Source of the DNA: an uncultured Gammaproteobacteria bacterium
GTDB lineage: Bacteria > Patescibacteriota > Patescibacteriia > Magasanikbacterales > GWA2-37-8
NCBI GenBank assembly: GCA_964439885.1
Contig: CAYTPE010000001.1
Location: forward strand, 9,031 to 73,030
Length of the DNA: 64,000 bases
Direction of reading: 5' to 3'
Position numbers and translations under genes: made by a program. Positions 2,537 to 52,704 of this stretch are shown one piece after another. Within the stretch, counting starts at the first letter, position 1; every line of letters begins with the position of its first letter. The notes under the pieces were generated by a model. That model had not been told where the DNA came from. It saw only the letters and a list, made by a program, of their open reading frames with translations, and did not search any database.

Positions 2537-4780
2537 ATGGTCATCGACCGCGCTCTCGACCCACTTATTATCAAAGAGTACGAAAGTATCAAAACCGCTC
2601 TGGTGAAGATTGATAAAAATCAACAGCAGGTTATTTTGGTTGTTTCCGAAGAAGGAGTGCTTTTGGGCATTGCCACCGATGGCGATATTCGCCGCTGGCT
2701 TATTAAACAGCCTGAAGTTGATTTGAACAAACCGATCAAGAGCGTCATGAAAGTTGATTTTATAAGCGTGCACGAGCAAACTGATACCGCTCGGGTTGAG
2801 CAGTTTTTTTCCAATGAAATTAAATTCATTCCTCTGCTTGACGACATGGGAAGACTGGTGGGAATAGCGCGGCCGTCATCAGACACATTTTTGATGGGTA
2901 ATCGTAAGATCGGTGTTGGTCAACCCGCCTTTATAATCGCGGAAATTGGAAATAATCATAATGGCAGCATCGAGCTTGCCAAGAAGCTTGTGGATCTGGC
3001 AGCCGAAGCTGGGGCTGATTGTGTTAAATTCCAAATGCGCGATCTCGGTTCACTCTACTCCAACCGCGGTAAAGCAGGCGATAAACGAGAAGATCTTGGT
3101 TCGCAGTATACATTGGATTTGCTCAATAAGTTCAATTTAACCCCCGAACAAATGTTTGAGGTGTTCGACTATTGTAAGAGTCGAAATATTTTGGCCTTCT
3201 GCACGCCGTGGGATTTGCAAAGTTTAGAGCACCTCAAACGTTATGGCATGCCCGGCTTCAAAATTGCTTCCGCCGACCTTACGAATCATGAACTGCTCAC
3301 CGCCGCGGCCAAAATCGGCAAACCACTCATCTGTTCGTCCGGCATGACCACCGAGAGCGAAATTCGAGCGGCAGTAAAAGTGCTCAGTGGCACCGGCGTG
3401 CCGTTTGCATTGTTACACTGCAATTCCACCTACCCAGCACCATTTAGCGATATCAATTTACGCTACATGCCCATGCTCAAAGAGATTGCCCACTGTCCGG
3501 TGGGGTATTCAGGGCATGAGCGCGGTATTAATGTCGCTGTCGCCGCCGTTGCGCTCGGCGCCAATATTATTGAGAAACATTTTACCATCGATCGAGCCAT
3601 GGAAGGCAATGATCATCGCGTTAGCCTTTTACCGGATGAATTCAAAAAGATGGTCGAAGGCATCCGCGAAGTAGAGCTTGCGCTCGGGAGTGGACAGAAA
3701 ACCGTACTCTCTCAGGGTGAGCTTATGAATCGTGAGGTGCTCGGTAAAAGCGTGGTTGTATCAAGAGCCGTATCCAAGGGCACCACTTTTACTCCCGACA
3801 TGCTCGATATAAAAAGCCCGGGCAAGGGTCTGCCCGCTTATCGAAAGGGTGATGTGATCGGCAAAATAGCGAATCGCGACTTTGCTCCTGGCGATTTTAT
3901 TTTTCCAAGCGATCTGAGCGAAGGTGGTACGAGCGAAACCACTTTTCGTTTTAAGCGTCGATGGGGTATTCCGGTTCGCTACCATGATTTTAAACAAATG
4001 CTCACGAAGGCTAATCCGGAATTGATTGAATTTCACTTAAGTTACAAAGATATCGAAGAAGACGCGCATCAGTTTTTCGACAAACCACTGAATATGCACT
4101 ACGTGGTGCATGCGCCCGAACTGTTTGCCGGCGACCATATTTTGGATCTTGCGTCGAGTGACGAATCGTACCGCCAGGCTTCGATTGCGAACATGCAACG
4201 AATAGTCGATATTACCCGCAGCCTCAAAACATATTTTACTACCGAACGACCCCTTATTGTCGCAAATGTGGGAGGCTTTACGGCCGATAAAAATATGCCA
4301 GTTGCCGAAAGAGCCGAGCGTTACAAACGAGTGGCCGAAAGTCTTCGTAAAGTTGATTCTGCGGGAGTGGAGATTATACCGCAGACTATGCCACCATTCC
4401 CATGGCATTTTGGTGGGCAGCGCTTCCATAATTTATTTGTCGACCCTGATGAGATTGTGGAATTTTGTAAAACATATGGTTATCGCGTGTGCCTTGATAT
4501 CGCGCACTCCAAACTCGCCTGCAACCACTATAAATGGTCATTCCGAGAATTTGTGGAAAAGGTCGGTCCCTACACCGCCCATTATCATATTTCAGACGCT
4601 CTTGGCGCCGATGGCGAAGGGCTGCAGATACACGATGGCGAAATTGATTTTAAAGCATTGTCCGATATTATGAATCACGTTTCCCCAGAGGCTTCCTTTA
4701 TTCCCGAAATTTGGCAAGGTCATAAAGACAGTGGAAGCGGCTTTTGGACCGCGCTTTCGCGTCTGCAAAAATGGTTTTAA
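2537..4780 (+). CDS. multidomain nonulosonic-acid (NeuB-like) synthase: CBS pair + NeuB sialic-acid-synthase domain + SAF domain + C-terminal xylose-isomerase-like TIM barrel
   Basis: 747 aa. CBS-like segments (VILVVSEEGVLLGIATDGDIRRWL), NeuB signature GVGQPAFIIAEIGNNHNGSIELAKKLVDLAAEAGADCVKFQ, a SAF-like segment (TFTPDMLDIKSPGKGLPAY...GDVIGKIA), then about 280 aa resembling a sugar-phosphate isomerase/epimerase TIM barrel (IEFHLSY...MHYVVHAPELFAGDHILDLAS). Confidence 0.75.
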   Translation: MVIDRALDPLIIKEYESIKTALVKIDKNQQQVILVVSEEGVLLGIATDGDIRRWLIKQPEVDLNKPIKSVMKVDFISVHEQTDTARVEQFFSNEIKFIPLLDDMGRLVGIARPSSDTFLMGNRKIGVGQPAFIIAEIGNNHNGSIELAKKLVDLAAEAGADCVKFQMRDLGSLYSNRGKAGDKREDLGSQYTLDLLNKFNLTPEQMFEVFDYCKSRNILAFCTPWDLQSLEHLKRYGMPGFKIASADLTNHELLTAAAKIGKPLICSSGMTTESEIRAAVKVLSGTGVPFALLHCNSTYPAPFSDINLRYMPMLKEIAHCPVGYSGHERGINVAVAAVALGANIIEKHFTIDRAMEGNDHRVSLLPDEFKKMVEGIREVELALGSGQKTVLSQGELMNREVLGKSVVVSRAVSKGTTFTPDMLDIKSPGKGLPAYRKGDVIGKIANRDFAPGDFIFPSDLSEGGTSETTFRFKRRWGIPVRYHDFKQMLTKANPELIEFHLSYKDIEEDAHQFFDKPLNMHYVVHAPELFAGDHILDLASSDESYRQASIANMQRIVDITRSLKTYFTTERPLIVANVGGFTADKNMPVAERAERYKRVAESLRKVDSAGVEIIPQTMPPFPWHFGGQRFHNLFVDPDEIVEFCKTYGYRVCLDIAHSKLACNHYKWSFREFVEKVGPYTAHYHISDALGADGEGLQIHDGEIDFKALSDIMNHVSPEASFIPEIWQGHKDSGSGFWTALSRLQKWF

Positions 4781-7046: not shown

Positions 7047-8378
7047 ATGGTTTCTTTTGCAGAATTACAATCCAAACGTCAGTCAATCGTGGTTGTCGGG
7101 CTGGGATATGTCGGGCTGCCTCTCGCCATCGCACTTGCCAGACATTTCAAGGTGATTGGTTTTGATGTTAAAGAAAATAGGATTACCGAACTTCAAGCGC
7201 ACTACGACCGAACGAGAGAAGTCACTGCTGACGATCTAATGAGCAGCACAATGGAGTTTGTGAGCGATCCGGTTGAGGTACGGAAAAAGCTGTGCGGTGA
7301 GTCGGCGTTTATTATTGTGGCGGTACCAACTCCTGTAAACCAAAAAAACGAACCAGATCTTACACTTGTAGAAAAAGCGTCAGCGATGGTAGGAAAAGAT
7401 TTTCTTTCCCCCGGCAGCGTGGTAGTGTATGAATCCACTGTCTACCCGGGAGTCACCGAAGACATCTGCATTCCAATTCTTGAAGAAAAATCACAAACTA
7501 AACGTGGTATTGATTTTAAGGTCGGTTATTCGCCGGAGCGTATTAACCCGGGCGATCACGAGCACACTATCAACAAAGTCACTAAAATCGTTTCCGGCAT
7601 GGATGCTGAATCCCTCGACGTAATTGCCGCGGTGTATGGGAGTATTACCACTGTTTTTAAAGCCTCATCCATCAAAGTAGCCGAAGCGGCCAAGGTTATC
7701 GAAAATACCCAGCGCGATATCAATATTGCCCTGATGAATGAACTGGCAGTTATCTTTAGCAAGATGGGCATTTCCACGTACGATGTTCTGGCGGCCGCCG
7801 GTACCAAATGGAATTTTCTCAAATTTACACCTGGCCTCGTTGGGGGCCACTGTATCGGGGTGGATCCGTATTACCTCACACACCGCGCCGAGCAGCTCGG
7901 CTACACGCCAGAAGTCATTTTGTCGGGACGCAAAATCAATGATGGAATGGGGGAGTGGATCGTGGAGCAGGTAGTGCAGCGAAGTAAAAAGCTGGGTAAA
8001 GATATTACCAAGTGTAATGTACTTGTTTGCGGCATGACATTTAAAGAAAACGTCCCCGATGTACGCAATTCCAAAGTATGGGATATTATCCAAGCGCTTA
8101 AAAAGCGTGGCGCCCAGCCTACCGTGTATGATCCGATTGCCTATAAAGACGAAGTCGAGTATGAATATGATTTTAAGCTTGCCGAAACGGAGGCGCTTTC
8201 CCGTGGTAAAAATTATGACATTATTATAGTAGCAGTAGCCCACCGGGAATTTGTGAATATGACGTCAGAAGCTTGGCAAAAAATAGCGTCTTCGAACCAA
8301 CCAATGGTTGTTGATGTAAAAGGAGTTCTAAATAAAGCCGAACTTGAACGAGTTGGATTTTCTTATTGGACTTTATAA
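7047..8378 (+). CDS. nucleotide-sugar dehydrogenase (UDP-N-acetyl-mannosamine/glucosamine dehydrogenase-like)
   Basis: The ORF track starts at 6975, but an in-frame ATG at 7047 follows the upstream stop at 7042. IVVVGLGYVGLPLAIALA Rossmann segment and the catalytic-Cys motif LVGGHCIGVDPYYL. Confidence 0.8.
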   Translation: MVSFAELQSKRQSIVVVGLGYVGLPLAIALARHFKVIGFDVKENRITELQAHYDRTREVTADDLMSSTMEFVSDPVEVRKKLCGESAFIIVAVPTPVNQKNEPDLTLVEKASAMVGKDFLSPGSVVVYESTVYPGVTEDICIPILEEKSQTKRGIDFKVGYSPERINPGDHEHTINKVTKIVSGMDAESLDVIAAVYGSITTVFKASSIKVAEAAKVIENTQRDINIALMNELAVIFSKMGISTYDVLAAAGTKWNFLKFTPGLVGGHCIGVDPYYLTHRAEQLGYTPEVILSGRKINDGMGEWIVEQVVQRSKKLGKDITKCNVLVCGMTFKENVPDVRNSKVWDIIQALKKRGAQPTVYDPIAYKDEVEYEYDFKLAETEALSRGKNYDIIIVAVAHREFVNMTSEAWQKIASSNQPMVVDVKGVLNKAELERVGFSYWTL

Positions 8379-20794: not shown

Positions 20795-21238
20795 ATGGAA
20801 AGTAAAAAAATAAAATGGTTGAGATACGTCACACTATTTTTTCTAGGATTCTCTCTATTGTCGGCGGCCACTACCAAGTTTGTTAAATGGACGAGCCTCA
20901 GTGATTATTGGATCGCAGAGGGGCAAGAGTTGGTGTGCGCTACACCGGACATAGTTGCAAGGCAAGAGTCTCCCAAGACGCAATATATAGCCGGCTGGAC
21001 ATCGATCAAATGTCCCACCTCATCGTGGTATCTACCGCTGTCGTTGAGTACGTTTATACTGTGTGCGCTATCACTTTTTTTGGCGTACATATACTTGGTA
21101 TTGAGAATATACCAGCGTTTGGTGGCTACTCAAAAGACATGGATACGTGTGATATATGATACGTTTATGATCTGCTTGTTCCCTGTAGTCATGATAATGT
21201 TTTCAATTTTTTCTTTCATCTATTATTTTAGTGGTTGA
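20795..21238 (+). CDS. hypothetical membrane protein
   Basis: 147 aa, 3-4 transmembrane segments, embedded in the glycosyltransferase cluster. Confidence 0.45.
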   Translation: MESKKIKWLRYVTLFFLGFSLLSAATTKFVKWTSLSDYWIAEGQELVCATPDIVARQESPKTQYIAGWTSIKCPTSSWYLPLSLSTFILCALSLFLAYIYLVLRIYQRLVATQKTWIRVIYDTFMICLFPVVMIMFSIFSFIYYFSG

Positions 21239-22365
21239 TTATGGCGAAGCTCTCTGTCCATCTCGTCTCCTGGAACGGTGCCAAATATATCCCATATCTT
21301 TTTGACTCTTTGCGCAAGCAAACCTACACAGACTGGGAATTATTTGTCGTCGACAACGCGTCGACTGACGAGACAGTTGCTTTGATTCAGAAAGAGCTTG
21401 TCAATTTTCCTTTTGCTTCGCGTGTTACAGTAAACACCACGAATACTGGTTTTGCGGGAGGGCACAACCAAGCGTTCAAAGCTGCGAGCGCTGAGTATTT
21501 TTTGTTACTCAATCAAGACATGTACCTCATGCCCGATTGTTTGGAGAAGATGGTACAGTTTCTCGATGAACATTCTGATGTGGCCGCTGTTTCGCCACGC
21601 CTGATGTGTTGGGCCTTTAGCGAGGATTTAAACGAATTTAAGGTTGATTCAGACAGATTTAGACAGAGTCTTACGCATCAGATTGACGCGCTGGGACTCA
21701 AAATTTTCCGCAATCGGCGAGTGGTGGAGCAGCATACGCGAGAAGAGTGGAGCGCATTTGTCATCCCCGACCATGATCGGGGATCTATCGCAAACGAACC
21801 GCAGAACGTGGATTCCCGTTTGCACGGGAATGACAGTGTCATAGTACTTGAAGTGTTTGGCGTTTCCGGTGCCTTCCCTATGTTGCGCCGTTCCATTATT
21901 AACGAAATTGTCTTTTCCGATGGAACGTTTCTGGATGAATCGTATCATTCGTACAAAGAAGATATGGACCTCGCGTATCGACTGGCTGCTCATGGAACAC
22001 GATCGTACATACTCAGCGATACGGTGGCGTACCACGATCGATCGGGAGCCGGCCCCAAGGAACTTTCCGACTGGGCAGCCGCCAAAAATAAATCCACCCA
22101 ATCGAGTTGGGTGCGCTACCATAGCTACAAAAATCATCTGATGACACTGTACAAAAACGAATACTGGCAGAACGCACTACTTGATGCGCCGTGGATATTG
22201 TGGTATGAAATTAAGAAGTTTGTTTATTTTCTACTGTTTGAACCGCGCGTGCTGAGGGGGTTAGGTGAGGTGTGGAAAATGCGTAAAGATTTGAAGATTA
22301 AAAGATTGAAGATTAAAGAATTAAGAAAGGTTGGTTGGCGGGAAATGAGAAAGTGGTGGCGGTGA
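21235..22365 (+). CDS. family-2 glycosyltransferase (contains an in-frame copy of a 29-nt repeat)
   Basis: LSVHLVSWNGAKYIPYL...FVVDNASTDETV GT2 N-terminus. Nucleotides 21808-21836 are identical to an intergenic MITE-like element at 30594-30622. Confidence 0.75.
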   Translation: MIMAKLSVHLVSWNGAKYIPYLFDSLRKQTYTDWELFVVDNASTDETVALIQKELVNFPFASRVTVNTTNTGFAGGHNQAFKAASAEYFLLLNQDMYLMPDCLEKMVQFLDEHSDVAAVSPRLMCWAFSEDLNEFKVDSDRFRQSLTHQIDALGLKIFRNRRVVEQHTREEWSAFVIPDHDRGSIANEPQNVDSRLHGNDSVIVLEVFGVSGAFPMLRRSIINEIVFSDGTFLDESYHSYKEDMDLAYRLAAHGTRSYILSDTVAYHDRSGAGPKELSDWAAAKNKSTQSSWVRYHSYKNHLMTLYKNEYWQNALLDAPWILWYEIKKFVYFLLFEPRVLRGLGEVWKMRKDLKIKRLKIKELRKVGWREMRKWWR

Positions 22366-25603: not shown

Positions 25604-25639
25604 CACCGCCGCGAGGTGGGATCCCACCTCGCGGCGGTG
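25604..25639. repeat. perfect 36-nt palindrome (CACCGCCGCGAGGTGGGATCCCACCTCGCGGCGGTG) downstream of the nucleotidyltransferase gene
   Basis: Exact dyad symmetry centred on GGATCC, with no flanking T-tract. Could be an operator or a T-tract-less terminator hairpin. Confidence 0.5.
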
Positions 25640-30551: not shown

Positions 30552-30621
30552 TTGTCATTCCCGCCGGAGCGGGAATCTCGGGTATATAACGAAGTGGATT
30601 CCCGTTTGCACGGGAATGACA
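30552..30621. mobile_element. MITE-like double-hairpin element with terminal inverted repeat TTGTCATTCCC / GGGAATGACA
   Basis: TTGTCATTCCCgccggagCGGGAATctcgggtatataacgaagtggATTCCCGtttgcaCGGGAATGACAg. It has the same termini as the element at 36631-36736; the internal 29 nt recur at 21808-21836 and a degenerate copy lies at about 60245-60275. Confidence 0.5.
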
Positions 30622-30685
30622 GACGGTAAATCGGGTGCTATATTCTAATTGTAAACAGTATAGCATGGGGTGTCTATAAAGGAAA

Positions 30686-32290: not shown

Positions 32291-33808
32291 ATGGACGGGA
32301 AAGAGGTATTTGAACTTATAGCCACAATCGCCAAACATAATAAAACTCCAACATATATCGTCGGTGGTTTTGTGCGTGACGCGCTGCTCGGTCGCGGGCA
32401 AAAAAAGGACATTGATTTTGTGGTGGTTGGTTCCGGCATTGCATTCGCAAAAAAATTTGATGAGGCAATGAAGCAGTCAGGCTCGCTTATTGAGTTTCCC
32501 GATTTTGATACGGCGCGGTATGTCATAAATCCCCGCTTGGGCGGGGAGCCGTCCGCCTTGGCGGCGGACGGGGGGTGGGTTGGTGAGAGCAACGAAACAC
32601 TTGTTTTGGAATTCGCGGGAGCGCGTACCGAAAAGTATGACGAGAAATCACGCAAACCAAAAGTGGAGGCAGCTAGTTTGGAAAAAGATTTGGAGAGACG
32701 AGATTTTACTGTGAATGCAATGGCAATAGATGTAACGAAATACGAAAGGTACGAAAATACGAAAGAGATAAGTGATATAGCGATTGATCCATTCAACGGT
32801 CGGCAAGACCTTGAAGATAAAATTTTGCGCACGCCGCTCGATCCGGATGTTACATTTAGTGACGATCCGCTACGTATGCTTCGCGCAGTGAGGTTCGCGG
32901 CTCAGCTTAATTTCAGTATCGAACCAAAAACACTCGAAGCCGTTCATCGAAATCGTGAGCGAATGAAAATCATTTCCGGTGAGCGAGTGCAAGAAGAACT
33001 TATTAAACTGATGGCGACTCCCGTGCCATCAATCGGACTGCAACTTATGTGGACCACAGGGCTCATGGATGTGGTACTCCCCGAAGTGTCGGCCCTGGAC
33101 GGTGTGGAAGAAATTTTTGGTCACCAACACAAAAACAATCTCGTACATAGTATCAAAGTAGTCGACAACATCGCCGAGTGGTCCACGAACCCGTGGCTAC
33201 GCCTCGCCGGGCTTCTCCACGACATTGGCAAACCCGGTACCAAGCAATTCCTCCCCAAAATTGGGTGGAGCTTTCACGCGCACGAGCACCTCGGTAAAAA
33301 ATTGTTTTATAACGTCGCGCGCCGCCTCAAACTCTCCAAAGAAAAAACCGATTATATCGCTAAGCTTATCCGCTGGCATCTACAGCCAATCGCGCTCATG
33401 GACGAAGGTATTACCGACTCGGCAGTGCGCCGGCTCATTGTCACAATGGGGGAGGAACTGGAGGATCTGCTCATCCTCGGTAAAGGTGACATTACTACGG
33501 GCAACCCGTATAAAAAAGAAAAAAGATTAAAGAATTACGATCGTTTGCGTTCAACGATTGATGACTTGATTGAGCGAGATAAACTCCGCGCCTTCCAGTC
33601 TCCGGTGCGCGGTGATGAGATAATGCAGCTGTGTGGGCTTAAACCTGGGCCAACGGTGGGTAAAATAAAAGAAGCCATTGAAGAAGCTATTCTCGACGGT
33701 AAAATTCCGAACGAGTATGACGCGGCGAAACAGTATTTCGAAGAGATTAAAGACGAGTATCTGAAAGAAGCAGCGCGATGGGAAAGAGAGGAAAATGGTA
33801 CGGAGTAA
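32291..33808 (+). CDS. cca: CCA-adding tRNA nucleotidyltransferase (head domain + HD domain)
   Basis: PTYIVGGFVRDALLGRGQKKDIDFVV nucleotidyltransferase signature, RDFTVNAMA, and the HD motif LLHDIGKP. Carries an approximately 40-aa insertion in the head domain. Confidence 0.8.
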   Translation: MDGKEVFELIATIAKHNKTPTYIVGGFVRDALLGRGQKKDIDFVVVGSGIAFAKKFDEAMKQSGSLIEFPDFDTARYVINPRLGGEPSALAADGGWVGESNETLVLEFAGARTEKYDEKSRKPKVEAASLEKDLERRDFTVNAMAIDVTKYERYENTKEISDIAIDPFNGRQDLEDKILRTPLDPDVTFSDDPLRMLRAVRFAAQLNFSIEPKTLEAVHRNRERMKIISGERVQEELIKLMATPVPSIGLQLMWTTGLMDVVLPEVSALDGVEEIFGHQHKNNLVHSIKVVDNIAEWSTNPWLRLAGLLHDIGKPGTKQFLPKIGWSFHAHEHLGKKLFYNVARRLKLSKEKTDYIAKLIRWHLQPIALMDEGITDSAVRRLIVTMGEELEDLLILGKGDITTGNPYKKEKRLKNYDRLRSTIDDLIERDKLRAFQSPVRGDEIMQLCGLKPGPTVGKIKEAIEEAILDGKIPNEYDAAKQYFEEIKDEYLKEAARWEREENGTE

Positions 33809-39687: not shown

Positions 39688-39757
39688 TGGGGCCAGGAGG
39701 ATTCGAACCTCCGCATTCCGGTTTGAAGCCGGACGCTCACCTCTGAGCCATAGCCCC
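39688..39757 (-). tRNA. tRNA-like gene with anticodon UCA (UGA-decoding; resembles Trp-type anticodon arm)
   Basis: Hand-folded 70-nt cloverleaf: acceptor GGGGCUA/UGGCCCC, D-arm GCUC-AGAGGU-GAGC (short loop), anticodon stem UCCGG/CCGGA with loop CUUCAAA (U33, U34-C35-A36, A37), 4-nt variable loop, T-arm GGAGG-UUCGAAU-CCUCC, discriminator A. No encoded CCA. Confidence 0.5.
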
Positions 39758-40695: not shown

Positions 40696-40965
40696 ATGGC
40701 CAATCGTCGTGCAAACGTGGTGCCGGGAGCTCCGGCGCCGGTTACTCCAGACCGTACCGCCGGGGCCGATGCCCCGACGCGGTACATGCCTCAGATCGAT
40801 GGCAGCAGTGCGGCCGACAAGCGGCATCGGCCGCTCGCTGACGGGCTGGCAGAGAGCCGGCTCGTCCAGATCGTCTGCCTGCGCCGCTACCTCTGGGTGG
40901 CGGGCGGAATCGCGGCCCTGGAGGCCGCTCTGCTGGCCGCGCTGGCGGCTAAGTTCCTCCTCTAG
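40696..40965 (+). CDS. small (89 aa) protein with Pro/Ala-rich N-terminus and a C-terminal transmembrane helix; GC3-rich codon usage
   Basis: GGGGGAGGaagaagATG ribosome-binding site. C-terminal RLVQIVCLRRYLWVAGGIAALEAALLAALAAKFLL. Followed by a strong 11-bp GC hairpin (GGGGTCTCGCC...GGCGAGACCCC). Confidence 0.4.
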   Translation: MANRRANVVPGAPAPVTPDRTAGADAPTRYMPQIDGSSAADKRHRPLADGLAESRLVQIVCLRRYLWVAGGIAALEAALLAALAAKFLL

Positions 40966-41086
40966 GAGGCTGACCCCGCGGGGTCTCGCCCGTGAGCGCT
41001 TTCGAGCGACCGGCGAGACCCCCGGGTCTCACTACTCCACGTATTGCTTTTTAAGCCGTGGGGTGATAAGGTTTGAGTGTTGTGTG

Positions 41087-41199
41087 AAAAGAATAAAGAG
41101 TAAAGAATAAAGAATAATAAACGAAACCACCACTCTTTACCTGCCTGCGTAGGCAGGCTCTTTACTCTTTACTCTTTACTCTTTACTCTTTACTCTTTC
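41087..41199. repeat. inverted heptamer tandem arrays (TAAAGAR x3 ... CTCTTTA x6) flanking a central GC hairpin, immediately upstream of dnaG
   Basis: aaaGAATAAAGAGTAAAGAATAAAGAAtaa ... GCCTGCgtagGCAGGC ... CTCTTTACTCTTTACTCTTTACTCTTTACTCTTTACTCTTTC. Confidence 0.6.
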
Positions 41200-41205
41200 T
41201 CATCC

Positions 41206-43041
41206 GTGGCCACCGATACACAGGCGATAAAGGATCGCATCGACATCGTACAACTCATCGGCGAATACATAACACTCAAAAAAGCGGGCGCGAACTGGAA
41301 AGCCAACTGCCCGTTCCATCACGAAAAATCGCCGTCATTTATGGTGCATGCCGATAAGCAAATCTGGCATTGTTTTGGTTGTGGGAAAGGCGGCGATATT
41401 TTTAGCTTTGTGCAAGAAATGGAAGGGCTTGATTTTGTGGAAGCGCTGAAACTCCTGGCCAAGCGTGCCGGTGTACCAATAGAAACATTCAAAAGCGAAA
41501 CCGACACGAGCGCGCGCAACCGGGTGCTGGAAGTGAACACGAAAGCGGCGGAATTTTTTCACCGCGTTCTCATGGAGTTGCCCGCATCTCAAAGCGCGCG
41601 CGAATATCTGGAGCGCCGCGGATTGAAAAGAGAAACTATTATAGAATGGCAAATTGGATTTATTCCCGACCAGTGGGATTTGCTCACTCGATATTTTCTC
41701 AAAAAAGGTTTTGGTATCAACGACTTGGTAGCCGCGGGACTGGTGATTAAACGTGAAGGAGTCACTTCGACTACCACCCCTACCCCTCCTTCGCAAGGAG
41801 GGGAGATTACGAGTGAATCCATACGTGGGTATTACGACCGTTTTCGTGGACGTGTAATGTTTCCTATTGCCGACACGCATGGCAATGTGGTGGGTTTTAC
41901 CGGCCGTGTACTGGTCGAAACCGAGAATTCGGGGGGTAAATACGTCAATACTCCGCAAACCGCCGTCTACGATAAATCACGTGTGCTGTATGGGCTTTCT
42001 CGAGCGAAAACTGAAATAAAAAACCAGGATCAGGTTGTACTAGTAGAAGGTCAGATGGATGTGATAGCCTGCCACCAGGCGGGCATGAAGAACGTCGTAG
42101 CCGCATCGGGCACCGCGCTGACAACAGAGCAGATTAAACTGATTAAACGATATACGACCAATATTGCCATGGCGTTCGACGCCGACAGCGCCGGAGAGAA
42201 TGCCGGCAAACGTGGTATTACCACAGCGATATCCGAAGCAATGAACGTGCGCGTGATTCGTATTCCACCCGGCTTTGCCAAAGACGCTGACGAGTGCATC
42301 AAAAAAGATCCGACGGTATGGTTTACGGCGGTGAAAGAAGCAGCTGATGTGATGGAGTGGTATCTGGCGATTGTACTCTCACGCTATGATATTCGTGAAC
42401 CCAAAGCGAAACGCGTCGCCGCGACTATTCTGCTCGAACAAATCCGCTCTATTCCCAACGCCGTGGAACGCGATGAATGGATTAAACGAGTAAGCGGCGA
42501 ACTCGGTATCGAATTACCCATTTTACGCGAAGAACTCAAAAAAATTAAAACGTTGCCGTCACCAAAAAACAATGAGCCCGTGAGTAAAGTGGTAGAGCGA
42601 GTAGAAGCACTCACACCGTACGAATTGTTGCTGCAGGAATTTTGGTCATTACTTTTGAAATTCCCGGAATTGTATTCGACATACGCGAGTTCGCTGTCGC
42701 CAGACTATTTCGCAGGCACACCTTTTAGTGCTCTTTACCAAAACGCTGTGGGTGTGTATACTAAAGCTCAAGCACTGGATATGGAAGCGCTTCGACAACT
42801 CTATGCGACCGAAGCGCAAAATCCGATTGATATATTGGTGCTCCGACCCTACCGCAATGTAGAGGATTTGTCGCTGCCGACCGCTAAAGCCGAACTCACT
42901 GAATTGTGGAAGCGCATCGCCGAGCAGTGGAACAAAGAACGACGCAAGGCACTGGAGAGAGAAATGGCGATGGCCGAAAAAAGTGGGGAGAAACAGAAGA
43001 TGCTTGAGCTGCTCCAAGAACTACAAAATTTGAACGTTTAA
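41206..43041 (+). CDS. dnaG: DNA primase
   Basis: 611 aa. CHC2 zinc finger CPFHHEKSPSFMVHADKQIWHCFGCGKGGD, TOPRIM EGQMDVIACHQAG...AFDADSAG. Carries a Thr/Pro-rich insertion (TSTTTPTPPSQGGE) before the RNA-polymerase domain core. Confidence 0.9.
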   Translation: MATDTQAIKDRIDIVQLIGEYITLKKAGANWKANCPFHHEKSPSFMVHADKQIWHCFGCGKGGDIFSFVQEMEGLDFVEALKLLAKRAGVPIETFKSETDTSARNRVLEVNTKAAEFFHRVLMELPASQSAREYLERRGLKRETIIEWQIGFIPDQWDLLTRYFLKKGFGINDLVAAGLVIKREGVTSTTTPTPPSQGGEITSESIRGYYDRFRGRVMFPIADTHGNVVGFTGRVLVETENSGGKYVNTPQTAVYDKSRVLYGLSRAKTEIKNQDQVVLVEGQMDVIACHQAGMKNVVAASGTALTTEQIKLIKRYTTNIAMAFDADSAGENAGKRGITTAISEAMNVRVIRIPPGFAKDADECIKKDPTVWFTAVKEAADVMEWYLAIVLSRYDIREPKAKRVAATILLEQIRSIPNAVERDEWIKRVSGELGIELPILREELKKIKTLPSPKNNEPVSKVVERVEALTPYELLLQEFWSLLLKFPELYSTYASSLSPDYFAGTPFSALYQNAVGVYTKAQALDMEALRQLYATEAQNPIDILVLRPYRNVEDLSLPTAKAELTELWKRIAEQWNKERRKALEREMAMAEKSGEKQKMLELLQELQNLNV

Positions 43042-46222: not shown

Positions 46223-46257
46223 TAGATAAAATTTAATTCATTTCCTTCCTGAAAACC

Positions 46258-49200
46258 ATGCATTTGGGAAGTGCTCGTACAATAGCTGCACAATTAGGCC
46301 GCATTACCGGCTATTTTTTGCTTTTTGTACTTGCTTTAGGGGGCCTTTTTGTTGATCCGTTTGTATCGACAGCTGCCACTGGTGTACCTAAAATTTTCAC
46401 CTATCAGGGTCGTTTGCTTGATGGGGCGGGGAATTTGCTTGGTGGCAATGGTACCAACTATTGTTTCCGTTTCTCGCTGTACGACAACGCCACCGTCGGG
46501 CAGGGCGCAAAGGTATGGCCGGCAGGAGTTCCGTCTACCATGACGCTACAAGTTAAGAGCGGTGTTTTCAACGGCGCAATCGGCGATCTTGCTGCGGGAG
46601 GGGATTTGCTTGATTATAATTTTCAGGATTCCGATGAGGTGTACTTGAACGTAGAAGTAGCAGCCCAGGTGGGTGGCTCATGCGCGGGTGTGGCATTCGA
46701 AACACTGGCTCCACGTCAGCGTGTGACTGCTAGCGGTTATGCCATCAACGCGAACACAGATGGCGGATTTACCACATCGCAGATTGCAACAGGCAGCCAG
46801 ATTCCCGTGCACACCAATGGTGCTATCGTGCTTGGTGGTGCCACTGCCGGGCTCAGTGCTACCAACGCAAACCCGCTTCTTTTGCAGGGGAGTGGTAGTG
46901 GTGACATTCAATTTTTTTCTGCACTGAATAAACTTTCTTCTGCCGGTAATTTAACATTGGCCGGATCACTCACTGCCAACGGCGCACTTCTCATCAACAA
47001 TGACGCGACTATTACTGGCACAACGACGTTGGCAACAACGAGTATTTCCAAAGCAACAATTGCGAATGCTACGGTGAATAATTTAACTGTAACGGGGGTG
47101 TGTTTTGGTTGTGGTGGGGGGGGGGCGGCAGGTGGGGTGAACACATCAACGGCAGGATACATGGCGTATTATCTGAATGGCACAAGCGTAACGGGCACAA
47201 GCATGGTGACCTTTGCTGGTAACACATTTACGGTTTCAGGTTTGTCTGTATTTACTGCTACCGCAACTTTTGCCACAACAAGCATTACGAACGCCGCTAT
47301 TGGCTCTGCTTCAGTAGGAAATTTGGTAGCTACAAACAGTACATCGACAAATAGCTTTGCTGAGGGGCTTGCTTATACCAATTTGTCTGGTGTCAATGCT
47401 ACTTCGACAAATTTGTTTGCGTCACAATTTAATTTTGTGAATGCAAATGGAACGAGTCTGACTTCTACGAATGCATTTTTTTCTAATTTAGCTGTAGGTA
47501 ATTTCAGTCCGACGAATTTGTCGACTTCTAACATTACCACTACCAATTTTGTCGCGACGGGCGCGGTGAGTCTGCCAGTTAACTCGGTGACCGACGCGAT
47601 GGTTTCGAACTCTTTGACTATTGACAACACGGGAAATATTTCCGCTACCGCTATCAATTCGGGAACACTTGGTAACAATGCTGTCACGTTGGCTCTCGGA
47701 TCTTTTGGCTCGATCACTGGAGCGCTTGGAGATGCCAACGTAGCGGACAATCTTACCATCAACGGTGGCACTATTAACAACACAACGATTGGCGCGTCGA
47801 GCCCCTCCACGGGTGTGTTTACGAACGCGACAGCTACCAATTTTGTTGCCTCGAATGTTACCACTACTAATTTGGCAGTGACGGGAGCACTAAGTGTGAC
47901 CTCACTCAACCCCACGAATTTGGCTTGGGTAAACGCCACGGGAACGAACAGTATTCTGAACAATGTAACAAGTACGAATTTGTCCGTCTCTGGCTTAACC
48001 ACTCTCGCCAACACCACCTTGACCAACGCCACCTCCACCAACTTCAACACCGTTGGCCTCACCTTCACCAACGCCACGGGCACCAACAGTGTCTTCACGA
48101 ACGCTACCAGTACCAACCTCTTTAGCACTGGCCTTGCCTTCACCAACTTAAACGGTACGAATGCCACCTCCACCAACTTCTTTGCCACCAACCTCGCGAG
48201 CCTTGGCCTGACCAGCACCTACGGCAACCTCTCCTTTATCACCGCCACCGGTGTCACCTCCACCAACGCGAGCTTTACGAACCTCAGTGCTGCCACCTTC
48301 AACCCCACCAATCTCACCTGGACCAACGCCACGGGGACCAACAGCGTCCTGACCAATGTGACCAGCACCAACCTCGCCGTCAGTGGCCTGGTTGCCTTAA
48401 CAGGGAACACCACCTTGACCAACGCCACCTCCACCAACCTCTTCTCAACCGGCCTCGCCTTCACCAACCTCTCTGGTACCAACGGAACAAGTACCAATTT
48501 CTTTGCCACGAACCTCGCGAGCCTTGGCATTACGTCCACGTATGGCACCATTACCTTCTTAACAACCAGCGGCATCACCTCAACCAACGCGAGCTTGACC
48601 AACGTTACCTCCACCAACCTGTCCGTCTCTGGCTTAACCACTCTCGCCAACACCACCTTGACCAACGCCACCTCCACCAACTTCAACACCGTTGGCCTCA
48701 CCTTCACCAACGCCACGGGCACCAACAGTGTCTTCACGAACGCTACCAGTACCAACCTCTTTAGCACTGGCCTTGCCTTCACCAACTTAAACGGTACGAA
48801 TGCCACCTCCACCAACTTCTTTGCCACCAACCTCGCGAGCCTTGGCCTGACCAGCACCTACGGCAACCTCTCCTTTATCACCGCCACCGGTGTCACCTCC
48901 ACCAACGCGAGCTTTACGAACCTCAGTGCTGCCACCTTCAACCCCACCAATCTCACCTGGACCAACGCCACGGGGACCAACAGCGTCCTGACCAATGTGA
49001 CCAGCACCAACCTCGCCGTCAGTGGCCTGGTTGCCTTAACAGGGAACACCACCTTGACCAACGCCACCTCCACCAACCTCTTCTCAACCGGTTTGGCATT
49101 TACTAATCTCAATGGTACCAATGGAACCAGCACCAACTTCTTTGCCACCAACCTCAGCAGTCTTGGCAGTACTTCCACCTACGGTAACATCTCCTTCATC

Positions 49201-52200
49201 ACGGCTAGTGGCATCACATCGACTAATGGTAATTTCACTAATTTAACAGCTTCGAACTTCATTCCAACCAATCTCACCTGGGTGAGTGCCACCGGTACCA
49301 ACACCGTTCTAACCAACGCCACATCAACCAACTTAAATACGGTTGGGTTAACCTTTACGAATGCCACGGGGACCAACGCTGTCTTGACCAACGCCACGTC
49401 AACCAACCTCTTCTCAACAGGTCTGGCATTTACTAACTTGAACGGCACGAACGCAACGAGCACCAACTTTTTTGCCACCAACCTAAGTAGTCTCGGGCTC
49501 ACCACTACGTATGAGAAAAGTACATTCCTTGTAGCGACAAATGCTACTTCAACTAATTCTTTTGTCACTAATCTATCAAGTCTAGGCATAACATCCACAT
49601 ACGCAAATCTTGGTTTCTTGGTAGGTACTAATATTACTTCAACAAATCAATACAGCAACGGTCTCACCTTTAATATCGCCACAGGTACCTCTATCACTAC
49701 TACAAATGCATATATCGCAAGTTTGGTCGTCGGCACATGTACGGGTTGTGGTGGCGGTGCGGCAAGCGGTGGTGTAAATACTTCGACAGCTGGAAATTTT
49801 GCTTATTATCAGGGTGCCAGCTCAGTCACCGGTACATCTGCCCTTACCTTGTCTGGTACGAATATTACTGCGAATGGCGCAGTAGCCTTAACTGCTACTA
49901 CCACCGCCACCAATCGTTTTATTAACACCATATCAAGCGGCTCAAATATATCAGTGGTCGGCAGCGTTGCTCTTGCCAACTCAGGTTCTAAACCATACAA
50001 CCTAGTACTTCGAGGACGGTATGCCTATGTAACAAATTTCGCTAGTTCTACCATATCTGTGGTTGATTTAAGCAATCCGGCAGCACCAACTGTAATTAAT
50101 ACAATTAGCGTTGGAATTAACGTCGGGCCAACAGGCATCGATAATGATAGTAGATATTTGTATGTTGCCGCGTCGTCTACGCCAAGCCTTTATATTTACG
50201 ATCTTTCAACTGCAGCAGCCCCGTCTCAAGTTGGTCAGTCGCTTTTGTCTTTTTCACCAACAGATATAGGAGTAGATGGTCATTTTGTCCTACTTCCGTC
50301 TCCGAGCTTTGGTCAGGTCCAAATTCGTGATATTAAATATCCAAATAATGTATCATCTGTTCCTGGCTTGGGTGGTGTTACTGGTGGAACCCGCATTACT
50401 ATCTTTGGTAAATATGCCTACTACTCGGGCTCTTCCAATCTGTATATTGCTGACGCCTCCAACCCTGCCTCAATGGTTGTTAATGGTAGTATTGCTATGC
50501 CTAATCAGGTTAATGGCGTGTATGTTGTAGACCGATACGCGTACGTATTAAATGGAGGCTCGTTAAACGTAGTTGATATTAGTACGCCCAGCGCTCCAGT
50601 AAATGTTGCGACCACTTCAATCGGCGGCACTCTCTGGGGAGTGGCTGGTACTGGCCGCTATCTCTACATTACAGATAAAGCCAACAGCTCCGTTGATGTC
50701 GTAGACGTGGCAAGCTCTACCAACCCAGTCTTAGTAAAAACCATTACAGGCTTTGCTTCACCGCAAGGCATCGCCGTTAACGGAAGATACGCCTACGTTG
50801 TAGATAATGGTGATGGTACTCTCTATGTAATTGATTTACAGGGAACGGAAGTGAGCTCTCTGGTGGCATATTCTGCCGATGTCGGTTCACAACAAATTAG
50901 AAATGATCTCTACATTGGCAACAAAGCTTTTGTGCTTGGAGGGTTGACTGTTGGTAGTTTGGGCATCGCGTCAGCCGGAGATCTTGTGGTCCAAGGCACC
51001 GGCAATTCTACACTAGCCGGCGCTTTGGTTGTTTCGTCATCCATTTCAGCAAGTGCTTTTTCTGTGTCTGATAATTCATTTTATACAAGTGTAGGAACAA
51101 CCTATATAACAAATCTAAACGCTACTAGCATTACCTCCACCAACCTCTTTTCTACCGGTCTCACCTTTACTAACGCTACAGGTACCAAGGCCATTTTCAC
51201 GAGCGCCACCTCGACGAATTTGTATACAACAAACGGCGTGTTTACTAATGCCACTACTACCAACCTGTATTCAAACGGGTTGGTCTTCTCACGCGCCACA
51301 AGTACGGCATTAACTTCCACCATCGCATACATCGGCAGCCTGACAGTCGGCAGCTGTTCAGGTTGTGGCGGCGGAGTCTCTTTGAGCGGCAATAATACAT
51401 GGAGCGGGCTAAATATATTTACCAATACTACCACATTAGCCACCACCACCATTTCAGGTATATTTGATGGTGATGCTAAATTCGTCCCAGCTAGCCCGAA
51501 TGGGAATGGTTTCCAAGTAATGAATTTAGAAAACGATGAGACGCTTTTCAGCGTCGGCCCTTCAGCAGGGAATGCTGATTTTGTGGCGATAGGGGATAGA
51601 AGTGCCGCGCTTACGACCACTACACTCTTATATGTTGATACCAAATCTGATGCTGGCGACCCCACGCCTCCACTGAGTGCGGACGGTGCTATCTATTATA
51701 ATTCGAATAGCAAAAAATTCCGGTGTTACGAAAATTCGTCATGGAAAAATTGTGATAGCGCTGCTAATGCTCAAACATTTACCGCCACAAGTACCTGGAA
51801 CAAGCCAAACGGTGTTACATATGTTACCGTGCGTTGTATTGGCGGTGGCGGTGGCGGTGGCGGCGGAAGTTCGAAGGCGGCTGGTGGTGCACGAGCTGGG
51901 GGCAGTGGCGGTGGCGGTGGCTCTGTGCTCATCAGAACATTTTTAGCTTCTGACGTAACATCTAGTATTGGTATTACTGTTGGCCAGCCAGGTGGGGCTG
52001 GCGCCGGCGGCGTAAACGGAGCCAACGGCACCAGCGGCAGCGCTGGTACTGCATCCAGTTTTGGCACGTATGTCACCTGTTATGGTGGTGGCGGCGGTTT
52101 TGGGGGCACAACTGCAGTGAATTCAGGTGGTACAGGTGGTGGTCACGGTGGTGCTGGTAATAGTGGCAGTGGTTCAGCTTCCACTGGCGGCTTGCCGGCT

Positions 52201-52704
52201 ACTGCCAGCAACGCAGTTGGTTTGTCGGGACAGGGTTCTGGTAGCAGCGCGGGTACGGCTTCTGGCCAACCATCCGAATGGGGTGGTGCTGCTGGTGGCG
52301 GATCTTCAATCACAGTAGCTAGTCAAAATGGCGGTACCTCGCTCTGGGGTTGTGGTGGCGGTGGCGCAGGTGGAAATATTACTACTGGTAACGTGGCCAA
52401 TGCACCAGGCGCTGGTGGTAACACCGGTGTTTGGGTTACGGCTGGCGGCGGCGGTGGAGCGGCTGGTTCAAGCGGTGCGGCTGGTACTAACGGCACCGAC
52501 GGAACGGGAGGAACCTCCTTGTTGTGCGGTAAAGGCGGCGGCGGTGGTGGATCTTCCACAAACGGTGCTAACAATGGCGGTACCGGTGGTAACGGTGGCG
52601 CTCCTGGCGGCGGCGGTGGTGGTGGTGGAGCCGGTACTACTACTGTTAATGGAGGTACTGGTGGCAGAGGAGGGGCAGGTGAGGTCGATGTATGGGCCTG
52701 GTAA
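46258..52704 (+). CDS. giant (2148 aa) secreted/cell-surface repeat protein: signal-anchor, Thr/Asn/Ser-rich ~106-aa tandem repeats, YVTN-type beta-propeller repeats, Gly-rich C-terminal domain
   Basis: N-terminal hydrophobic segment [15 protein letters not shown]. Low-complexity repeats of the form [46 protein letters not shown].... [29 protein letters not shown]... repeats (YVTN/LVIVD-like) follow. The final ~300 aa are about 45% Gly ([18 protein letters not shown]...[25 protein letters not shown]). Confidence 0.8.
47981..49258 (+). repeat. near-identical 639-bp (213-aa) tandem duplication inside the giant gene, itself composed of ~106-aa sub-repeats
   Basis: TGTCCGTCTCTGGCTTAACCACTCTCGCCAACACCACC... 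occurs at 47981 and again at 48620. Hundreds of following nucleotides are identical between the copies. Confidence 0.8.

Follow-up and report, generated by a model that had tools for sequence, protein, structure and literature searches.

How does a protein-coding gene come to share 29 consecutive nucleotides with an intergenic hairpin 8.8 kb away? The question is raised by a 64-kb stretch of metagenome-assembled DNA (contig CAYTPE010000001.1, positions 9,031–73,030; hereafter, the window), in which GTGGATTCCCGTTTGCACGGGAATGACAG occurs exactly twice, both times on the + strand: at 21808–21836, inside a gene for a family-2 glycosyltransferase (GT2), and at 30594–30622, in an intergenic region. 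The identity, first pointed out in an annotation made from the sequence alone (the first-pass annotation), is exact, and 0 matches are expected by chance even with up to 3 mismatches allowed (100 dinucleotide shuffles). We consider it about 75% likely that an inverted dimer of 77 nt, of the CGTC-1 type of repetitive extragenic palindromic (REP) sequence, has the 29-mer as its right arm, is inserted in frame in a loop of GT2 in the manner of the Rickettsia palindromic elements (RPEs) and is linked to the small Ssn nucleases, which act on single-stranded DNA (ssDNA).

Two hairpin dimers in the window

The first-pass annotation described the 29-mer as the core of a miniature inverted-repeat transposable element (MITE). 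Alignment of the two loci showed that similarity continues upstream of the 29-mer and that each locus has a second, inverted hairpin arm; the 29-mer is therefore not the whole feature but one arm, with 3 + 1 flanking bases, of a dimer that lies wholly inside the gene (Table 1). This in-gene dimer consists of a 27-nt left arm, a 25-nt spacer and a 25-nt right arm, with TGTCAT/ATGACA facing outward, and it encodes V176–D200 (numbering of the 376-aa open reading frame (ORF)) together with parts of both flanking codons, in frame and with no stop. The left arm is read as (F)VIPDHDRGS and the right arm as (V)DSRLHGND. The translation given earlier for the 29-mer, ..NVDSRLHGNDSVIVLEV.. (VDSRLHGNDS) without a stop in the 376-aa ORF, is correct, as is the GTGTCAT that directly follows it; no stem comes after GTGTCAT.

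The intergenic dimer has the same TGTCAT/ATGACA ends. Its left arm is TGTCATTCCCGCcggaGCGGGAATC and its two arms, of 25 nt each, are 80% complementary. The dimer folds as a single long hairpin (−39.6 kcal/mol, z −5.3). On one side of it is the start of a 799-aa gene on the minus strand, and on the other a terminator-like hairpin that follows a tRNA-Pro gene. Relaxed searches of the window found no family members beyond these four arms.

The family to which the arms belong has been described before, and 'MITE' is not its label. The CGTC-tagged REP superfamily was defined by Di Nocera, De Gregorio & Rocco (2013, BMC Genomics; PMC3733652). Hairpins of its CGTC-1 family are recognized by a tag of CGTC or TGTC and a CCA tail; their stem, of 8 bp, begins with AT and their loop has 4 nt. 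They mostly form inverted dimers with spacers of 20–100 bp; heterodimers are known (PMC3733652). In the same survey, CGTC-1 was equated with Neisseria dRS3 and with RPE-6 of R. conorii, and RPE-4 with CGTC-4; intragenic CGTC and GTAG copies were reported, more than half of them dimers or groups encoding 20–30 aa (PMC3733652). More recently, SsnA, a GIY-YIG nuclease of 94 aa with a single domain, was found to bind the ssDNA of NTS, an oriented 28-nt form of dRS3 (CGTCATTCCCGCGMAVGCGGGAATCYRG), and to cut a few bases upstream. SsnA does not bind RNA, and its gene is typically flanked by the hairpins in an architecture like that of an insertion sequence (IS) (Nat Commun 2025, PMC11893778). The same study described a degenerate Ssn-related motif (SRM) across phyla, with Rickettsia and Wolbachia among the richest genomes (PMC11893778).

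All four window arms carry the TGTC tag when read on the SRM-carrying strand, and all have a perfect 8-bp stem starting with AT (ATTCCCGT/ACGGGAAT twice, ATTCCCGC/GCGGGAAT and ATCCCCGA/TCGGGGAT). The loop is 4 nt in three arms (GCAA twice and CGGA) and 6 nt in the GT2 left arm; the right arms have a CCA tail, the left arms CTA or CTC. The published SRM pattern, HGTCWYN(0-2)YYVSBRHN(0-5)WNVSBRGN(0-2)RNCYNB, matches three of the four arms against 0.2 matches expected per window: both GT2 arms (the left one across 21759–21788, reading on the + strand) and the intergenic right arm. The intergenic left arm fails the regular expression. A further match at 33461–33491 has no convincing hairpin and is at chance level. 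Against the strict Neisseria NTS with at most 1 mismatch allowed, the arms have 4–5 mismatches, partly compensatory in the stem. By their sequence, then, the window arms are of the SRM class and are not Neisseria NTS proper. The same strict SRM scan over 496 kb of loci with GT2 relatives returned 2 matches, both in one locus (L178; loci and proteins are given by our L and P numbers), and because the pattern tolerates little variation at its tail and misses real arms, such as that of L129, the count was not used as a measure of density. At gathering thresholds, Rfam detected only four tRNAs across the window, with no match at the element. Two other candidate identities were rejected: a CRISPR repeat, as there is no array, and a terminator, as there is no T-run and the element lies inside coding sequence.

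To place the hairpin in a wider context, we scanned one genome per species for the pattern GATTCCCG-N6-CGGGAATGACA and obtained at least 120 stretches. The matches listed cover nearly every bacterial phylum, including Proteobacteria, Bacteroidota, Chloroflexota, Planctomycetota, Nitrospirota, Cyanobacteria and Omnitrophota, and also include many lineages of the candidate phyla radiation (CPR), among them a Magasanikiibacteriota metagenome-assembled genome (MAG), as well as a Rickettsia endosymbiont, Tisiphia and a Nanoarchaeota MAG. Many have an inverted partner arm 20–60 nt away, with TGTCAT/ATGACA outward and ATCCAG/CTGGAT inward; the base after the outer ATGACA end is not conserved in the 154 copies listed. 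The loop variant of the two window 29-mers, TTTGCA, is found in none of the 154 same-type hairpins listed from 120 other genomes. This variant being private to the window copies, it indicates that the two 29-mers share a within-genome origin, by a copy or a conversion event.

The left arm of the in-gene dimer has its own parallels: its stem variant also occurs in L005, L049, L092 and L178. The heterodimer of a ATCCCCGA-type arm with an ATTCCCG-type arm is found between genes in L178, L049 (an Uhrbacteria contig) and L092, which speaks for arrival of all 77 nt together. In L178 this same type of heterodimer (3926–3996) stands just upstream of the start of a GT2 relative, so that at this type of locus the element is present within the gene or beside it. 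Literature searches for the peptides encoded by the repeats (VIPAKAGIQ, LDSRLRGNDK and others) found no papers.

Table 1. Positions of the GT2 gene and of the two hairpin dimers in the window
Feature	Position	Strand	Basis or description
GT-A-fold family-2 glycosyltransferase (GT2), second of four consecutive GT2 genes	21235–22365	+	PF00535, 1.9e-26 (Pfam)
In-gene element, complete inverted dimer of CGTC-1/SRM hairpins	21759–21835, 77 nt		Arm-for-arm alignment with intergenic L178 and L049 dimers
GT2 left arm, TGTCATCCCCGAccatgaTCGGGGATC	21759–21785	+	TGTC tag, perfect 8-bp stem ATCCCCGA/TCGGGGAT, 6-nt loop
Spacer of GT2 dimer	21786–21810, 25 nt		Peptide IANEPQN(V); unrelated to intergenic 19-nt spacer
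GT2 right arm	21811–21835	−	SRM on − strand as TGTCATTCCCGTgcaaACGGGAATCCAC; 8-bp stem, 4-nt loop, CCA tail
Intergenic dimer of CGTC-1/SRM hairpins	30553–30621, 69 nt		Arms 30553–30577 and 30597–30621, 19-nt spacer

The glycosyltransferase loop in orthologues

The host ORF is intact. It has 376 aa counted from the first TTG, and the identical database protein (P0001) has 374 aa; the real start is therefore probably the ATG at 21241. The names of its homologues place it in Candidatus Magasanikbacteria/Patescibacteria (tiny CPR bacteria of groundwater type), and the gene order is kept in contigs with orthologues. An AlphaFold2 model built with 38 orthologues has a GT-A fold (mean predicted local distance difference test score (pLDDT) 82.4, predicted template-modelling score 0.84), and its best PDB matches by Foldseek are SpsA, TarS, TarP, GalNAc-Ts and K4CP. 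Within V176–D200, residues 179–186 and 193–199 have a pLDDT below 50, and the flanking core is above 85. As modelled, the insert falls in a disordered loop on the surface, between one half of the GT-A domain and the other, and the catalytic core is intact. For the enzyme, the inserted segment is most likely a neutral passenger.

Comparison with orthologues, which are mostly 340–355 aa long, places the element in a hypervariable region bounded by the conserved ...RRV.E..T...W and LEVFGVSGAFP. Between two fixed anchors, the loop has 52 aa here, compared with 26–33 aa in the great majority of the metagenomic relatives parsed (56 in all). In a neighbour-joining tree of conserved columns, the window protein groups with P0015, P0049, P0026 and P0068, and the nearest relatives, P0015 and P0049, have short loops without the segment. 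Thus some 25 residues have been added, with the frame preserved, to a loop that is tolerant and probably disordered. This is the configuration that characterizes RPEs: a palindromic repeat in frame, an intact gene, and nearest orthologues that lack the segment. The first-pass proposal of a recent in-frame insertion into a tolerant linker is borne out as regards the insertion and the linker; 'recent' is uncertain, because this hairpin also occurs, at the matching position of the loop, in a distant clade of orthologues. Near-identical or population variants were absent from both the protein database and the metagenome scan, in which the best non-self matches are 61–68% identical.

That clade also bears on the finding that the first-pass annotation had named as fatal to an insertion, namely the same peptide at this position in orthologues whose genomes lack the repeat family. 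Formally that condition is triggered, as DSRFHGND stands there in several orthologues, yet it does not refute the insertion because the peptide is encoded by the same hairpin DNA. Over the 10 hairpin codons, the window and L129 use the same codon for 8 of 8 identical residues, and the window and L002 for 7 of 8 (88–100%), compared with 42–48% elsewhere in the gene. The hairpin has therefore been conserved or renewed at the nucleotide level, not through the protein.

Across the orthologues, the loop seems to be a recurrent landing place. A solo right arm stands directly before LEV in L002 and L129, as a perfect hairpin in the latter (ATTCCCGTtttcACGGGAAT); it is progressively decayed in L130, L132 and P0014, and reduced further in P0016 and P0017. 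This solo-right-arm state is ancestral in the clade, which is distant from the window. Elsewhere an arm lies in the forward orientation and in another frame, and although its DNA has decayed, the peptide KMKMSFRAERF is kept through a whole clade (for example, L142, with ATG TCA TTC CGT GCT GAA CGC, and L197). P0008/L005 (6001–7134) has a full CGTC dimer in the first variable loop (..VIPAKAGIQ..LDSRLRGNDK..) and a GTAG-type REP hairpin, GTAGGGAACGCagatccGCGTTCCCTAC, in the loop studied here. Peptides of unrelated hairpin repeats are present in P0029/L140, P0076 and P0026. In other clades, then, hairpin-derived peptides persisted while the hairpin decayed, and a single enzyme loop shows the series from intact dimer through solo arm and decayed arm to a relic that is peptide only.

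A putative nuclease partner and competing explanations

The only gene that recurs next to the hairpins encodes a GIY-YIG nuclease. Nine small GIY-YIG ORFs (PF01541) were found in the loci of the pattern scan, and five of these loci (L065, L081, L122, L126 and L022) have the order forward SRM, GIY-YIG gene of about 95 aa, reverse SRM, with tags outward. Given this geometry around ssn-like genes, the 77-nt unit resembles a hairpin–ssn–hairpin unit on a miniature scale, with the gene left out. We putatively assign the hairpin-flanked GIY-YIG proteins to cd10448 on the basis of this architecture; searches of PDB and NCBIfam with the hairpin-flanked nuclease gave only a generic GIY-YIG/UPF0213 relationship.

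We propose that the element is a non-coding miniature of the IS-like hairpin–ssn–hairpin unit, and that a small GIY-YIG nuclease of the Ssn type would recognize its arms as ssDNA, bind the hairpin and nick a few bases upstream, in the TGTC tag. As the tags face outward, each end of the unit would be nicked once, on opposite strands, and this might lead either to spread of the unit or to homogenization from copy to copy by repair or gene conversion. Either outcome would explain the private 29/29 identity with the intergenic copy. Selection would then keep those insertions that have a net length in multiples of three, are open in the host frame and lie in tolerant loops; read from the consensus, the hairpin is open in five of six frames.

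Several observations weigh against this account. A hidden Markov model (HMM) built from six hairpin-associated GIY-YIG proteins found no ssn-like ORF of at least 40 aa in the window. The same HMM found genes in nine pattern-scan loci and in two CPR GT2 loci (L170 and L176), and the ssn-like genes of these two have no flanking hairpins under the criteria used. The activity established for Ssn is that of a nuclease and not of a transposase, and mobility of the hairpins has never been demonstrated (PMC11893778, PMC3733652). Neither a target-site duplication nor a clean empty site was found, no direct repeats flank either window dimer, and the boundaries of the insertion are approximate because the closest orthologues share no more than 62–68% identity. 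Just two dimers occur in the 64 kb of the window; their spacers measure 25 and 19 nt, and the right arm alone is common to them; the left arms and the spacers differ. Finally, the right arm at the same loop position in a phylogenetically distant clade could reflect ancient inheritance with repeated loss, or site-preferential re-insertion or conversion, and not one simple recent insertion.

This last point is the starting place for an account based on gene conversion, in which the hairpin was already in the loop from an ancient insertion shared with the DSRFHGND clade, and was recently overwritten by, or donated to, the intergenic copy. The position of the clade's arm immediately upstream of LEV agrees with such a history, and so do the residues that follow the arm, which are similar (NDS-VI here, NDN-VI in L130). 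So too does the identity between the window copies, which is confined to the 29-nt right arm and includes the loop variant TTTGCA that they alone have in common. The tree, however, groups the window with the segment-less P0015 and P0049, and the match of the whole 77-nt heterodimer to intergenic units elsewhere favours arrival as a complete unit. We therefore think this history unlikely as the explanation, and note that conversion is compatible with insertion of a CGTC-1-type dimer and does not exclude it. Action at the mRNA level, whether by pausing translation or by serving the GT2 operon as an attenuator, RNase site or stabilizer, had been offered in part by the first-pass annotation, together with a check of the mRNA structure. 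On that check the region does fold as two stable hairpins (−34.8 kcal/mol over 96 nt, z −3.0), and REPs and MITEs can act as RNA elements (PMC3733652). Even so, the stem is lost while the peptide is kept or changed in L130, L132, P0014 and the MSFRAERF clade, so that orthologous copies decay at the DNA level; the nearest relatives have no hairpin here; Rfam has no match; and the published cognate protein, SsnA, acts on ssDNA and is without RNA binding (PMC11893778). Conservation of the hairpin's sequence across phyla, and not just of its structure, points to recognition of the DNA by a protein. A role in the mRNA is accordingly very improbable.

The similar peptide DSRFHGND in several orthologues might also suggest an ordinary, vertically inherited protein segment whose likeness to the intergenic repeat is coincidental or convergent. 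An identity of 29/29 nt with none expected by chance, the excess of shared codons within the hairpin, the perfect 8-bp stems in both arms and the lack of the segment in the nearest relatives make this scarcely credible. Nor do we give appreciable weight to an assembly artefact in which a short repeat produced a chimeric join. The DNA comes from a metagenome assembly and repeats can mislead assemblers, but this repeat is far shorter than the read length, and the ORF is in frame and aligns with orthologues on both sides of the element. Moreover, a Logan contig from run SRR11567520, possibly the window's own source run, encodes the identical protein, which makes an assembly error the more unlikely. 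Taken together, the evidence favours an in-frame CGTC-1-type dimer with a link to Ssn.

Distribution in the candidate phyla radiation and known systems

Exact hairpins lie inside long ORFs in 18 of the 154 matches listed: 6 of 18 at CPR loci and 12 of 136 elsewhere, which are small numbers. In-gene arms in CPR occur in real genes, including P-type ATPases with DKTGTLT in L050 (Magasanikiibacteriota, about 7686–7710) and L072, and genes for proteins that by eye resemble GatB (L015) and PrmC (L117). It is a distinctly doubtful generalization, although one that the counts invite, that CGTC/SRM dimers colonize coding loops far more often in CPR than elsewhere, that one loop of this cell-envelope GT2 has been hit repeatedly in both orientations, and that KMKMSFRAERF has been exapted in some clades. 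We also observed in-frame CGTC/SRM arms in genes of L023, L124, L097 and L040, among them a Rickettsia endosymbiont (IleRS-like protein) and a Nanoarchaeota MAG (methylase-like protein).

For annotation, the consequence is that VIPxxxG(I/S), LDSR(L/F)(R/H)GND, CHSRxxGNP and SFPRKRES in CPR proteins mark REP insertions and are not conserved domains. Should the in-gene hairpins still be live Ssn sites, recombination or DNA uptake at loci for surface polysaccharides could also be modulated by them, as has been proposed in Neisseria for the clusters of NTS around surface genes (PMC11893778).

The window has further features apart from the dimers. A 70-nt tRNA (39688–39757, − strand) has the anticodon UCA (loop CUUCAAA) and would read UGA; ARAGORN calls it 'SeC', and it has no long variable arm. 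TGA serves as the stop of 6 of the 50 ORFs of at least 200 aa, the GT2 gene included. The tRNA could be of a suppressor or recoding type, in a lineage that is not known to be recoded. At 40887–40975 (+ strand), ARAGORN predicts an 89-nt tRNA-Pro(tgg) for which Rfam gives nothing even at E ≤ 0.01; either the prediction is spurious or the tRNA contains an insertion or an intron. Two perfect hairpins with 9-bp stems lie inside ORFs, CCGTCCGCCttggcGGCGGACGG at 32549–32571 in a 505-aa ORF (32291–33808) and CCCCTCCTTcgcAAGGAGGGG at 41783–41803 in a 645-aa ORF (41104–43038), and may be in-frame palindromic insertions of other repeat families. After the GT2 cluster, a perfect palindrome of 36 nt (CACCGCCGCGAGGTGGgatcCCACCTCGCGGCGGTG, 25604–25639) lies between genes; its 16-bp stem is GC-rich and no T-run follows it. 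A 2155-aa ORF (46237–52701, + strand), with long tandem units (periodicities of about 639 nt and 320 nt, copies up to 100% identical) and a strong negative GC skew, probably encodes a giant repetitive surface protein.

Among known systems, MITEs such as Correia/NEMIS and Nezha resemble the element in being short and non-coding, with inverted termini, and in lying occasionally in frame in genes. They differ in that here the arms are themselves palindromes, and there is neither a target-site duplication nor an IS transposase with matching inverted repeats. REPINs, which are mobilized by RAYT transposases (Bertels & Rainey 2011), also consist of two inverted REP hairpins with a short spacer that can form one long hairpin, and are non-autonomous with a single-copy protein partner flanked by the same hairpins. 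Their tag is GTAG and their partner an IS200-like Y1 transposase, whereas here the tag is TGTC and the candidate partner a GIY-YIG nuclease.

RPEs (RPE-6 and RPE-4) are likewise palindromic repeats in frame in functional genes, adding a peptide in tolerant regions, and the locus from a Rickettsia endosymbiont (L097) has the exact hairpin, including a copy inside a 1137-aa ORF. Here, by contrast, the host is not a Rickettsia but a CPR bacterium with a free-living or episymbiotic way of life. The classical RPE-1, of about 100–150 bp, exceeds the element in length. Our link to RPE-6 is indirect and runs through the published equation of RPE-6 with CGTC-1 (PMC3733652). With dRS3/NTS/SRM, the element shares the core ATTCCCG-N6-CGGGAAT, which is the dRS3 palindrome, and the oriented GTCAT flank; unlike the element, which is in frame in a gene, NTS in N. 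meningitidis is intragenic in 2% of copies (PMC11893778).

With CGTC-1 REPs, the element shares the tag, the AT-start 8-bp stem, the inverted-dimer arrangement and an intragenic position like that of the copies encoding 20–30 aa. The agreement in 4-nt loop and CCA-type tail is partial: the GT2 left arm has a 6-nt loop and a CTA tail. The 2013 survey described CGTC repeats in five phyla, with CPR/Patescibacteria not among them (PMC3733652). 'Patescibacteria' does not appear in the text of the Ssn study (PMC11893778), and our literature search found no paper that describes CGTC/SRM repeats in CPR. The kind of event, a CGTC/RPE-type REP dimer in frame in a gene, is thus established and involves no new mechanism; what is new is the host lineage and the multi-stage series in one loop. 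A single CPR element ties together the dRS3/NTS repeats of Neisseria, the in-frame RPE-type palindromes of Rickettsia and the motifs of the Ssn ssDNA nucleases.

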